Source of the DNA: Solirubrobacteraceae bacterium
Lineage (GTDB): Bacteria > Actinomycetota > Thermoleophilia > Solirubrobacterales > Solirubrobacteraceae
Assembly: GCA_035505215.1 (NCBI GenBank)
Contig: DATJQY010000015.1
Coordinates: forward strand, 160,387-224,386
Direction: 5' to 3'
Length of the DNA stretch: 64,000 nt
Part shown: positions 23,276 to 56,681 of the stretch, piece after piece
Layout: each line of letters begins with the position of its first letter
How positions within the stretch are numbered: the first letter of the stretch is position 1
Notes under the pieces: generated by a model
What the model was told of the DNA's origin: nothing
The model's database searches: none
What the model saw: only the letters and a program-made list of their open reading frames with translations
Position numbers and translations under genes: made by a program

Positions 23276-24556
23276 GTGGACCCCCAAAGACAAGCTGACG
23301 CGCTCGCCGCGCTGAGCAGCTTCCCGCTGCTGGAGGCGATCTTCGGGCGCCGGTCGCGGCGCTTTCCGCTCGGCGGCGAGATCCCCGACGGGCCCCTTAC
23401 CTACAAATCCAAGCACGAGCATCTCCCCCTCTCCGAGCTCGAGACGCTCCTGATCCTGGCCGTGATGACGGGCACGACGGGCTGGCACTACGGGATCACG
23501 CGCCACGCCCGCTACGCCCCCGCGCTGGCCAACTACAACGCCGCCGCCGCGGGCCGCACCTTCCCCTCGGCGGCGGGCTTTCACACCTCGGAGCTCTTCT
23601 TCACCGACGACTCCGGGCTCTACTTCCTCCCCACCCGCGACGCCGGGGCGCTCGTCGATCCGGCCACCGAGGAGGTGACGGTGGAGCTGATGCTCGCGCG
23701 CCACCGCGACCGCGTGCAAAAGCTGTCGGGCACGCGCCTCCACCTCCCGCGTGAGGAGCCCTACCTCGAGGGCCACAACACGTGGATCGCCAACGAGCCC
23801 GGCTCGCTGCTCGCGATCCCGATCGCCGACATCGCCCAGCACCACATCGCCAACCTGTGCTTCTTCACCCAGAACGGCTACTGCCTCTACGACGACATCA
23901 ACCAGCGCCCGATCCCCGGAATCGAGGCGTTCGGCGATCTGGTCGACCTCGAGGCGCCGGTCCCGCTGTCCTTCGTCGAGCAGTACTCGCTCACCGAGGC
24001 CTCGGCCGAGCTCATGACCTCCAGCTACAACGGCGCCCTGCTGCTCCAGGCCATGGGGCTTGGCGGATGGTCGTTTGACGGCATCGAGCACATGGCACTG
24101 CTCGGAGCCTCGGGGAACCCCGAGGTCCCGGGCCTCGGCTTCCGCTACGACACCGACGAGCGCTGGGGCACCCCGAACCCCACCGGGCGGACCGACGGAA
24201 CCTTCCACGCCTTCTGCCCGCCCCACTTCCCGACCATGGCCGCCGCGGTCGACGCCTTCTGCGAGCGCAAGTTCGGCCCCGGCGGCCCGTATCACCCGGA
24301 CACGCCGGGGCCGTGGCAGGACTCGCGCCGGGTCCGCGCCGCCGCCGAGCCCCACGACGAACGCTTCCGCGCCTGCGTGACCCTCCAGTGCCAGTACACG
24401 CTCGAGACCTGGGGCAAGTTCCCGGGCACGGTGCCGAGCGTGTGGGTGATGAACTTCCTCCAGGCCCAGCACATCGACCTCGAGTTCTACGACCACCACT
24501 TCCGCCCCGGGGCCTACCTCGACACCCACCGCCGGCACATGGAGGTCTGGCACTAA
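23276..24556 (+). CDS. Nitroreductase/SagB-like fold protein of unknown function
   Basis: RRSRRF, GRTFPSAAG and LLLQAMGLGGW resemble FMN-binding motifs of the nitroreductase superfamily. GTG start follows AGGAG. Confidence 0.55.
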   Translation: MDPQRQADALAALSSFPLLEAIFGRRSRRFPLGGEIPDGPLTYKSKHEHLPLSELETLLILAVMTGTTGWHYGITRHARYAPALANYNAAAAGRTFPSAAGFHTSELFFTDDSGLYFLPTRDAGALVDPATEEVTVELMLARHRDRVQKLSGTRLHLPREEPYLEGHNTWIANEPGSLLAIPIADIAQHHIANLCFFTQNGYCLYDDINQRPIPGIEAFGDLVDLEAPVPLSFVEQYSLTEASAELMTSSYNGALLLQAMGLGGWSFDGIEHMALLGASGNPEVPGLGFRYDTDERWGTPNPTGRTDGTFHAFCPPHFPTMAAAVDAFCERKFGPGGPYHPDTPGPWQDSRRVRAAAEPHDERFRACVTLQCQYTLETWGKFPGTVPSVWVMNFLQAQHIDLEFYDHHFRPGAYLDTHRRHMEVWH

Positions 24557-24557
24557 A

Positions 24558-24662
24558 AAAGTGCGCCTCGTGTGCGGCCCGCGATCGAGACGCACGTTTG
24601 GGTCCTATAGAGCACACAACGTGCGCCCGAATCCCCACCCGTGAGCGAGACGCACGTTTTTT
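24558..24662. repeat. Two REP-like hairpin units in 60-bp tandem
   Basis: GTGCGCC at 24561 and 24621; CGAGACGCACGTTT at 24586 and 24646. Each unit has complementary arms. Confidence 0.75.
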
Positions 24663-24669
24663 CAGGGAA

Positions 24670-24741
24670 GGCCGGGCCGCATGCGGCCCGGCCCCGCCCG
24701 GTGCATGCACCGGGCGGCGGGGGCGCGCATGCGCGCCCCCG
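24670..24741. repeat. Array of three abutting perfect 24-bp palindromes centred on GCATGC
   Basis: GGCCGGGCCGCATGCGGCCCGGCC | CCGCCCGGTGCATGCACCGGGCGG | CGGGGGCGCGCATGCGCGCCCCCG, checked base by base. Confidence 0.95.
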
Positions 24742-24756
24742 AACACCACGATGCGC

Positions 24757-54454: not shown

Positions 54455-55141
54455 ATGCCTAACGTTCCACCCCCGAAACGGCACCCGTATGACCAATGGT
54501 CACCGGATGCTCGGGCGCTGGACTTGGTGGGCGACAAGTGGACGCTACTGATCGTCCGCGATCTCGCCGCCGGGCCAAGGCGCTTCGTCGAGCTCCAGCG
54601 GGTCCTGCCGGGGATTTCCACTGAGCAGTTACGAAGCCGACTGAATCGCATGGTCGCGGACGAGATGCTGACCCGGAAGCGGTATCGCGAGGTGCCGCCG
54701 CGGGTCGAATATGAGTTGACCGAGCGCGCGCGCGAGCTGATGCCCGTGCTGGGCGAGCTGGCGCGGTGGGGCTATGAATGGGCCTGGGGGCCGCCCCGCG
54801 ACTCAGAGACGGTCGACGTGAGCGCGATCTTCCGGCTCGCGCCGGGGCTGATTCCCGCCAACGGCTCGAGCGGCACGGTCGAGTTCGCCGTCGATGAGGG
54901 CGAATTCCGCCTGTCCTACTGCTGCGCGGTCTCCTCGGTCGGCGTCGTCGTCGAGGAGCGCGAGCCGCGCCAGCCCGACGCCCGCGTCACGGGCACCCGC
55001 TCGGACTGGGTCAAGGCGCTCCTGCCCGAGCACGACCGCGACGGCCTCGAGATCACCGGCGACCGGCCGCTGGCCGAGAAGCTCTTGGCCCACCTGGTCG
55101 CCGAGGGCCGGACCAACCACCGCTCGCGCGCGCTGGCCTAA
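54455..55141 (+). CDS. HxlR-family winged-helix regulator with C-terminal SCP2-like extension
   Basis: ARALDLVGDKWTLLIVRDL..GPRRF.EL...LPGIS, PPRVEYELT. RBS GGGGAGG. Confidence 0.9.
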   Translation: MPNVPPPKRHPYDQWSPDARALDLVGDKWTLLIVRDLAAGPRRFVELQRVLPGISTEQLRSRLNRMVADEMLTRKRYREVPPRVEYELTERARELMPVLGELARWGYEWAWGPPRDSETVDVSAIFRLAPGLIPANGSSGTVEFAVDEGEFRLSYCCAVSSVGVVVEEREPRQPDARVTGTRSDWVKALLPEHDRDGLEITGDRPLAEKLLAHLVAEGRTNHRSRALA

Positions 55142-55143
55142 AG

Positions 55144-55215
55144 CCCACCCGCGCATGCGCGGGTGGCCCGGCCGGTGCATGCACCGGCCGGAGGGGCGGC
55201 GCATGCGCCGCCCCT
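55144..55215. repeat. Second array of three 24-bp-period palindromes centred on GCATGC
   Basis: (C)CCACCCGCGCATGCGCGGGTGG(C) | CCGGCCGGTGCATGCACCGGCCGG | AGGGGCGGCGCATGCGCCGCCCCT. Confidence 0.95.
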
Positions 55216-55217
55216 TA

Positions 55218-56681
55218 CTACTTACTCGAGTACGTCGCCGAGTTGATCGGCGGCACCTTGTACTGGGTGCTTGAGCCGGGGAGCGTGGGCTGGGTCCAGC
55301 AGGCCGGGTGCCCACCGGCGGCGGCGTCGGTCGAGCCGTGGGCGCCGCCGGTGTTGCGGCAGTCCCAGGCCGCCAGGCCCCAGTCGCCCGGGAAGGTCCC
55401 GCCGGCGTTGAAGATCTGGCTCAGCCAGAGCGATGACGGGTACACGTTGCCGCGGTTGTCGGTATCCCGGTTCGGGGCCAGGGATAGGGTCTCCGGGCCG
55501 CTCGGGCCGAACTGGCGCAGGTAGTGGCCGGTGCCGTTGCCGCCGAAGGTGGTGGTGCGGGCGAAGAAGCTGGCCCCGCCGTCGGTGATGAAGTCCGAGG
55601 TGAGCTGCTGGTGTCCGCCGATCCAGTCGAGGATCGGGTTGAGCTGCTCCAGGAACGGTCCCAGCTGATCGAGCATCGTGTTCGGCCCGAGGCCCTTGAT
55701 GATCCGCTCGGTCGCCGGCAGCCCCGTCGAGGAGGCCGTGACCAGCGGCCCCAGCTTGACGAACAGCGTCCTCAGGCTGGGCGCGAGCTGGTTGACCGCG
55801 GTCAGCGTCGGCTTCAGCTTCTGGGCCACCGGAATCAGGTTGCGGATCACCGGGTCGGCGTTGGCGGAGAAGGTCTTCAGATCGGCCATCGTCAGCCGCG
55901 ACTGGGTGAGGAAGGTCGGGAAGATGTGGAACACGTCGGCCAGGGCGACGTTGTTCCGGGCCAGCTCTCCGAACGTCGTGTCGCCCGCGGTGATCAGGTT
56001 GCGCAGGGCGGCCGGATCCTGGTTCAGGGCCGCGAACGTGGTGCCGCCGTTCTGGACCAGGGAGACGACGGCGGTGTGCTGGATGTTCAGCACCTGGAGC
56101 AGCTGGGTGAAGTTGATCGCGAACGGCGGCAGGTTGCCCAGGACGTCGTTGAGGTTCTGGTCGTTGCCCGTGACCGCCTGGGCGATCGACTGCTGCCAGG
56201 AGCGGAAGGCGGCGCGCGTGGTGGGGTCGAAGGTGTCGAAGATCTGATTCAGCTGGGTGGCGGGCACCACCTGGGTATTGGGCAGGCGGCCGCCGTCGGC
56301 CAGCGGTGGCGAGTGCGGCGTCCCCGGAGTCAACTGGACGTAGGTCTCGCCGAGGATCGTCTTCTCACGCAGGATGGCCTGGGTGTTCTTGCGCAGCGGC
56401 GCGTACTGGTTGTCGATCTGGATCGTGGCCAGCGTGCGGTTGTCCTTGGCGTCGCGCTGGGTCTCCACGACCTTGCCCACCGAGACCCCGGCGATGCGGA
56501 CGTCGGCCTGGTTGGCCAGGTCATAGGCGCTGGGGAAGGCGATCTCGACGCGGTAGCCCTGGGGGTTGAACGGCATCGTCCCGCCGAAGGACAGCCACAG
56601 GAAGAGCAGCAGCCCCACGCAGGAGAGCGCGAACAGGACCATCGTGGCGATGCGGGATACAGGAGGGCTGTCGGTTGCCAT
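55218..56681 (-). CDS. MCE/MlaD-family protein
   Basis: N-terminal TM, ADVRIAGVSVGKV, A.LR.KT.LGE.YVQL.PG, long helical region. Confidence 0.9.
   Translation of the reverse strand: MATDSPPVSRIATMVLFALSCVGLLLFLWLSFGGTMPFNPQGYRVEIAFPSAYDLANQADVRIAGVSVGKVVETQRDAKDNRTLATIQIDNQYAPLRKNTQAILREKTILGETYVQLTPGTPHSPPLADGGRLPNTQVVPATQLNQIFDTFDPTTRAAFRSWQQSIAQAVTGNDQNLNDVLGNLPPFAINFTQLLQVLNIQHTAVVSLVQNGGTTFAALNQDPAALRNLITAGDTTFGELARNNVALADVFHIFPTFLTQSRLTMADLKTFSANADPVIRNLIPVAQKLKPTLTAVNQLAPSLRTLFVKLGPLVTASSTGLPATERIIKGLGPNTMLDQLGPFLEQLNPILDWIGGHQQLTSDFITDGGASFFARTTTFGGNGTGHYLRQFGPSGPETLSLAPNRDTDNRGNVYPSSLWLSQIFNAGGTFPGDWGLAAWDCRNTGGAHGSTDAAAGGHPACWTQPTLPGSSTQYKVPPINSATYSSK

Follow-up and report, generated by a model that had tools for sequence, protein, structure and literature searches.

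Two convergent genes, one for an HxlR-family regulator and one for an Mce-type protein, are separated by a stop-to-stop gap of 76 nt in the 64,000-nt window (the whole stretch of DNA that was analysed), and 72 nt of this gap are taken up by an array of palindromes, as the earlier note had claimed. The locus, referred to here as locus B, raises the question of whether such an array is a structure that belongs to this site, a copy of something that lies elsewhere, or both. In our preferred reading, which we consider probable, locus B is a dispersed non-coding repeat, a hairpin array of REP/BIME-like type, that acts here as a two-way 3'-end hairpin block.

Structure and setting of locus B

Direct reading of positions 55144-55215 confirmed the presence of three abutting 24-bp palindromes, each with a GCATGC centre and repeated with a period of exactly 24 bp. 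The units read, in order, CCCACCCGCGCATGCGCGGGTGGC / CCGGCCGGTGCATGCACCGGCCGG / AGGGGCGGCGCATGCGCCGCCCCT. Unit 1 (55144..55167) consists of CCCACCCGCGCA+TGCGCGGGTGGC and forms 11/12 pairs, while unit 2 (55168..55191, CCGGCCGGTGCA+TGCACCGGCCGG) and unit 3 (55192..55215, AGGGGCGGCGCA+TGCGCCGCCCCT) are perfect palindromes; unit 3 has an unusual A..T outer pair, which is also found in two orthologous arrays (L159 and L161, described below). The borders are slightly degenerate (TAAAG...TAC). On the left lies a + strand ORF for an HxlR-family winged-helix regulator of 228 aa (54455..55141; Pfam HxlR E = 5e-27), the stop codon of which (TAA, 55139-55141) ends 2 nt before the array. On the right, a - strand ORF encodes an Mce/MlaD-domain protein of 487 aa (55218..56681; Pfam MlaD E = 4.5e-16); it is the final gene of an mce cluster, and its stop codon (CTA on the + strand, 55218-55220) lies 2 nt beyond the array. 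A second HxlR-family gene, with 72% protein identity to the neighbour of locus B, was seen outside the window (C14:3066-3746).

The predicted RNA folds of locus B consist of three hairpins on each strand, with energies of -67.8 and -68.4 kcal/mol (z = -4.6 and -4.1). The SSSSSGCATGCSSSSS pattern occurs 4 times in the window, compared with 0.39 expected, and two GCATGC sites are spaced by 24 a total of 13 times genome-wide, every other spacing up to 100 being found at most twice. Because of this excess, the unique spacing and the fold z-scores, a chance origin of the pattern is excluded.

The window contains a further array, locus A (24666..24747, + strand), which is a canonical copy with GGAA, three units and an AACACC tail. 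Its units (24670-24741) have the same build as those of locus B, and the two middle units have the 16-mer CCGGTGCATGCACCGG in common, in agreement with the earlier note. Units identical to unit 2 of locus B occur in two other arrays of the same genome (C12:203508 and C15:279037), and no identical donor for units 1 and 3 was found elsewhere in the genome. In the stretch just upstream of locus A (24550-24665), ...GAGACGCACGTTT(TTT) occurs twice, together with sequences that are in part complementary to it (GCACTAAAAAAGTGC; ACGTGCGC...GCGCACGT), so that this gap has a second small motif of repeat or hairpin type.

A dispersed family of palindrome arrays

The source genome is a draft of 3.76 Mb (68.8% GC, 34 contigs), in which six complete triple arrays and four that are cut off at contig ends were found. 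The 3' ends of contigs C16, C24, C29 and C33 stop within CATG-centred palindrome arrays, and at the end of C29 a CACATGTG-centred unit is paired with a GCATGC unit. Arrays thus cause breaks in the assembly, and the true count for this genome is 8-10. When 185,579 species, each represented by one genome, were scanned for the pattern GCATGC-N18-GCATGC-N18-GCATGC, at least 120 loci matched. Among the matches listed there are at least about 85 further arrays with perfect arms of about 12 bp in every unit, nearly all titled as Solirubrobacterales or Solirubrobacteraceae MAGs; the remaining matches listed have arms of 3-5, are ordinary direct repeats and come from other phyla, so that the distribution is bimodal and an intermediate class is absent. 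Arrays were present in 7/25 sampled genomes of the genus and in 11/201 genomes and 4/51 genera of the family, with 1-14 per genome (at most 14 triple arrays outside the source genome) and genome-specific arm types, and were absent from all 16 sampled genomes of other families of the order. Locus B is thus a copy of a hairpin-array family that is dispersed, with patchy distribution, in soil Solirubrobacteraceae, and the choice that the earlier note made between a functional element and a recent copy is in this respect not supported.

The family is apparently undescribed. A literature search for such repeats found nothing relevant, and comparison of the array with Rfam covariance models gave chance-level matches alone (E >= 1, far below gathering scores). 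Several other identities were considered and rejected: a phage origin, as none of 32 viral-contig matches is palindromic; a CRISPR array, as the units differ among themselves and abut, with spacers absent; and a sister family with a CGTACG centre, as the 19 'control' matches in one genome (G234) belong to an ordinary 24-bp direct repeat that is not palindromic. At an unrelated locus of another MAG (L081, 6621-6692), one array unit is identical to unit 1 of the L159 orthologue, and the outer unit at the opposite end closes, like that of locus B, with the unusual A..T pair and is likewise followed by TCCTA.

The anatomy of the family was analyzed in 94 arrays with 308 units, 237 of them distinct. 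Most arrays have three units (range 2-7), and the unit spacing is 24 bp, with 23 or 25 being rare. Their half-site reads SSSNNSGGYGCA. Among long palindromes close to the arrays, the centre is CGCATGCG in 227 cases, TGCATGCA in 63 and CACATGTG in 17, which indicates that the CATG centre is conserved even where the search pattern left it free. When 66 distinct three-unit arrays were aligned without gaps, 99.2% of stem cells were Watson-Crick pairs, a percentage that is inflated by the acceptance of units with up to two mismatches each; shuffles gave 67%, and slid controls 32-43%. Every one of the 27 variable pairs shows changes in both partners, and G-U occurs in 2 of the 2376 stem cells. In a broader set of 302 units, non-Watson-Crick pairs number 55, and the outermost position accounts for 45 of them. 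Such exact symmetry at the DNA level, with G-U nearly absent, agrees with a requirement that acts on both strands or on the DNA itself and does not fit one that acts on a single-stranded RNA of one sense. The earlier note had taken natural covariation to favour a functional element over a copy; the covariation is indeed very strong, but the opposition of copy and function is a false one.

The arrays also have a polarity. AAC is present on one side alone in 35/94 arrays, extended as AAC-A/T-G-C, and these arrays tend to have (G)GAA or TGA/TAA on the opposite side; the border is often asymmetric, of the form (G)GAA...AAC(A)(G/C)C.

Gene contexts were obtained with a rough codon-usage gene caller of our own making. 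For the 77 arrays with both neighbours called, the flanking genes are convergent in 32 cases, co-directional in 32 and divergent in 13, and the array typically starts 0-20 nt past a stop codon. The upstream ORF continues through about eight arrays, and about five are located within genes. In the source genome, C15:279002 lies between divergent genes for an FmdB-like zinc-ribbon protein and a glycyl-tRNA synthetase, both named by eye, and at C20:149226 the Pro/Ala linker of a carboxylase-like gene, again identified by eye, contains a triple array in frame (C20:149123-150610, L170). The 30 residues downstream of the latter array are still conserved, indicating that transcription and translation pass through this copy. 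The divergent and the in-frame copy cannot be terminators, and because such copies exist the family is not a purpose-built terminator. The idea that the array is an operator for the neighbouring HxlR regulator was dropped, since like arrays adjoin unrelated genes.

At the carboxylase site, relatives have a linker of 18-20 aa with no array, and G018 alone has another array, with borders as in the source genome (..AA+array+AACACCCC). The carboxylase genes of the source genome and G018 are sisters in a linker-free tree (bootstrap 91, SH-aLRT 96), and 11/27 variable pairs differ between their arrays, all of them compensated. A possible near-palindrome in the carboxylase linker was seen by eye only. 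In a further copy (C26:11977-12064), the frame of an ABC ATPase runs through the array and ends in ...VYVKWDSAHAPSPPAVHAPPDGGEHARPRTATA*, by which the ATPase gains about 29 residues with HA-containing 8-aa repeats; a convergent Rrf2-like gene is overlapped at its end by this frame (both identifications were made by eye).

The orthologous junction in relatives

For the hxlR/mce junction, closer relatives were drawn from metagenome contigs. The question raised by the earlier note, whether orthologous junctions have or lack the element, receives a divided answer. The same array is present in L159 and L161, which have 90.5% and 87.8% nucleotide identity in hxlR, respectively, and in both of them units 2 and 3 are identical to those of the source genome. 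Unit 1 is a perfect GCCACCCGCGCA+TGCGCGGGTGGC in L159 and a perfect GCCAGCCGCGCA+TGCGCGGCTGGC in L161, the latter with one compensated change from C:G to G:C, and in both it directly abuts TAA. Since unit 1 of these orthologues is perfect and abuts TAA, the source genome has, relative to them, an extra C in unit 1 and an extra A before it. The terminal mismatch of the earlier note accordingly holds as a count of 11/12 pairs and is better read as an extra C in the left arm.

The array is lacking in L158, L160 and L162/L163 (about 86% nucleotide identity) and in L165 (82%). When four of these gaps were folded (L158, L160, L162 and L165), a GC-rich hairpin was found in each: in L160, L162 and L165 it is an imperfect GC hairpin, unrelated to the array, beside the mce stop, and in L158 a similar hairpin lies farther from the mce stop in a longer gap. 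The earlier note had envisaged that only two copies might exist and that relatives might have unrelated hairpins at the same sites; the latter is found in relatives beyond about 15% nucleotide divergence, while far more than two copies exist. Among 29 congeneric HxlR loci, taken with 1,500 nt of flank per side, no array was present. The HxlR/Mce arrangement was seen in 6 of the 7 + strand loci that were read, synteny being established for this + strand subset only, and the gaps of the + strand loci measure between about 3 and about 90 nt and have unrelated sequences. One such gap (L009 2160-2280, in G007) is made up of about seven tandem copies of GGCGGCGGCGTAAA, a repetition of the gene end with its stop codon. 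Locus B is shown to be an old insertion or replacement that has been kept nearly unchanged.

The extent of this stasis was evaluated against the flanking genes. Fourfold-degenerate sites in these genes differ by 21% (L159) and 30.5% (L161), and the probability of at most two differences in 72 nt at such rates is 8e-6 and 2e-9, respectively. Of the variable pairs of locus B, 0/27 have changed in L159 and 1/27 in L161. A recent recombination tract was rejected as the cause of the conservation, as the adjoining coding sequence has diverged and the 2-nt spacer beside the array is different in the three lineages (TA, TC and AA). The slow evolution of the orthologous array, with its one compensated change, argues for a constraint on pairing, as judged from these comparisons.

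It may be asked whether pairing is maintained by the palindromes themselves. One alternative, which we regard as a minority possibility though the most serious of those considered, is that the arrays are palindromic DNA of a selfish or neutral kind and nothing more, without any role at the site, their symmetry being maintained at the DNA level by template switching within the palindrome (PMC7202029), by conversion between copies, or by both. The exact symmetry with no tolerance of G-U is in its favour, as are the copies that lie in a gene and in a promoter region and the genome-specific arm types, which suggest concerted evolution. The 11 compensated differences between the sister species in the carboxylase array point the same way, and so does the middle unit of the G018 carboxylase array (CCGACCGGT), which is close to other middle units of G018 (CCGACCGGC and CGACCGGT). 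However, self-correction alone predicts an approximately neutral turnover of pairs, 21-30%, which is far from the values seen at locus B, and conversion cannot explain the stasis because units 1 and 3 have no identical donor in the genome. For these two reasons the stasis at locus B points to selection on pairing, a final step that we infer.

Role of the hairpins and class of element

In the reading that we prefer, the family is made up of perfect 24-bp palindromes that abut one another; the CATG at their centre is constant (GCATGC or, in some units, CACATGTG), and their arms are free in sequence and self-complementary. The family behaves as DNA of REP/BIME, RPE or MITE type, settling mostly 0-20 nt past stop codons and also in promoters and in frame. 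In an ancestor of the source genome and its closest relatives, a copy of the array probably replaced an ordinary GC-rich hairpin between the hxlR-like gene and mce. The three hairpins, which are predicted to fold alike on both strands, would then provide a 3'-end structure for both transcripts, probably as a terminator, a block to 3' exonucleases, or both. Selection on pairing in both directions would keep the hairpins exactly symmetric, possibly with help from template switching at quasi-palindromes. In E. coli, template switching within a palindrome 'perfects' quasi-palindromes (PMC7202029).

Two other explanations were weighed. The arrays could be binding sites or cruciforms for a protein that reads CATG or the hairpin, such as a nucleoid organiser or a hairpin-specific enzyme, with effects on transcripts being secondary. 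The centre is always CATG (GCATGC or CACATGTG), even where the search pattern did not require it, and the units have a fixed length of 24 bp and no spacers between them, both of which are consistent with a protein site; yet a sequence-reading dimer would not need complementary variable arms, the 24-bp spacing is out of helical phase, and a candidate protein was not found, so that we consider this explanation unlikely. An origin in place as a dedicated bidirectional terminator, the other copies being due to convergence, would account for an array that fills the convergent gap exactly and for the hairpins of relatives at the same spot, but is highly improbable given that arrays at unrelated loci and in different genera have unit order, centre, length and borders in common, that their taxonomic distribution is patchy and that some copies are in non-terminator contexts.

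The arrays resemble REP/BIME-type repeats in a number of ways. REP elements, BIMEs and REPINs of Proteobacteria are short GC-rich extragenic palindromes that are clustered and dispersed (PMC2817692, PMC3333891, PMC3116915). The arrays are likewise GC-rich palindromes clustered head to tail and dispersed, mostly just past genes; their sequence variants are genome-specific, and an asymmetric conserved tag, here AAC(A)GC / GCTGTT, lies beside the hairpin. In position they agree with REPs, being extragenic and mostly downstream of genes. In form they differ: REPs are imperfect conserved palindromes with a GTAG/CGTC tetranucleotide and alternate in orientation with linkers between them, whereas the array units are perfect, abutting and linker-free, do not alternate and have no GTAG. 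Moreover, the arms vary freely within a genome, with the CATG centre and the 24-bp length alone being fixed, the copy number is low (about 10, compared with more than 100), and no RAYT/Y1 gene was found in 13/13 array-bearing genomes. The host also differs, the arrays belonging to an actinobacterial order of the Thermoleophilia lineage.

Terminators offer a partial parallel at locus B. The hairpins are very stable, yet no U-tract follows the array, and a simple terminator scan returned 0 sites. U-tract-less actinobacterial terminators and the repeated mycobacterial terminator motif TRIT, which receives a mention in PMC3384566, resemble the arrays as very stable repeated GC-rich hairpins at gene 3' ends, often convergent ones. 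The arrays differ in that they consist of 3-7 hairpins whose length is fixed, whose loop is constant and whose stems are free, and in having some copies where a terminator makes no sense; termination by the arrays is putative.

With respect to mobilisation, a search for PF01797 (RAYT/Y1 transposase) was negative in all 13 array-bearing genomes, including the source genome, and positive in control genomes, and RAYT/IS200 mobilisation was therefore rejected. IS110 was discarded as well, having no association with the arrays, and the search for IS91/Y2 was silent in its control genomes. No parent insertion sequence or kb-scale partner was evident. As a tentative proposal, the arrays might be RAYT-independent propagating DNA, in which 24-bp palindromes are copied or renewed via their own hairpins, either by CATG-seeded fold-back and template switching or by an enzyme acting on the CATG hairpin. 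If true, this would explain the G-U-free symmetry, the constant centre with free arms, and the replacement of earlier GC-rich inverted repeats, such as is seen at the HxlR/Mce gap.

Proteobacterial REPs influence where transcripts end, how stable mRNAs are and how the genome is structured, and they depend on a dedicated transposase. The array family places a comparable element in a poorly studied group of soil actinobacteria, with stricter rules (exact symmetry, a 24-bp module and CATG) and with no RAYT found. It offers natural experiments, namely one site with and without the array, a single compensated change in an orthologue and an in-frame copy common to sister species, by which two questions can be tested directly: by what means a palindrome stays perfect, and how repeats of this kind spread when no enzyme for it is known. 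There are practical consequences as well, as arrays break assemblies (four contig ends in the source genome) and are at risk of being mistaken for protein segments in annotation.

Rickettsia palindromic elements (RPEs) and the Correia elements and MITEs of Neisseria are small non-coding palindromic repeats. Like them, the arrays can sit in frame inside genes or alter gene ends (C20 and C26), and in some other genomes they are enclosed by inverted AT-rich 'leaders'. They differ in their modular 24-bp build and in that no parent insertion sequence is seen. A MITE is marked by a terminal inverted repeat, a target-site duplication and a related autonomous IS. Inverted leaders occur in some other genomes only; at the arrays of the source genome there is no terminal inverted repeat or clear target-site duplication, a possible AA duplication being weak, and the leader is absent. 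Where it occurs, the leader precedes arrays of 4-7 units and has the form CATGCTT-(A/T-rich)-AAAGCTGATGNNGT. A coding reading of the frames that an ATG in the leader opens through the arrays was rejected, as spacings of 23/25 bp put units out of a common frame and a conserved peptide is absent. In the complete chromosome of G276 (L218-L229; also L085), AAAGCTGATGNNGT has 17 exact occurrences, always in a CATGCTT-(A/T)6-9-AAAGCTGATGNNGT leader that abuts an array, and four of the arrays have an inverted leader at both ends, giving elements of 158-209 bp.
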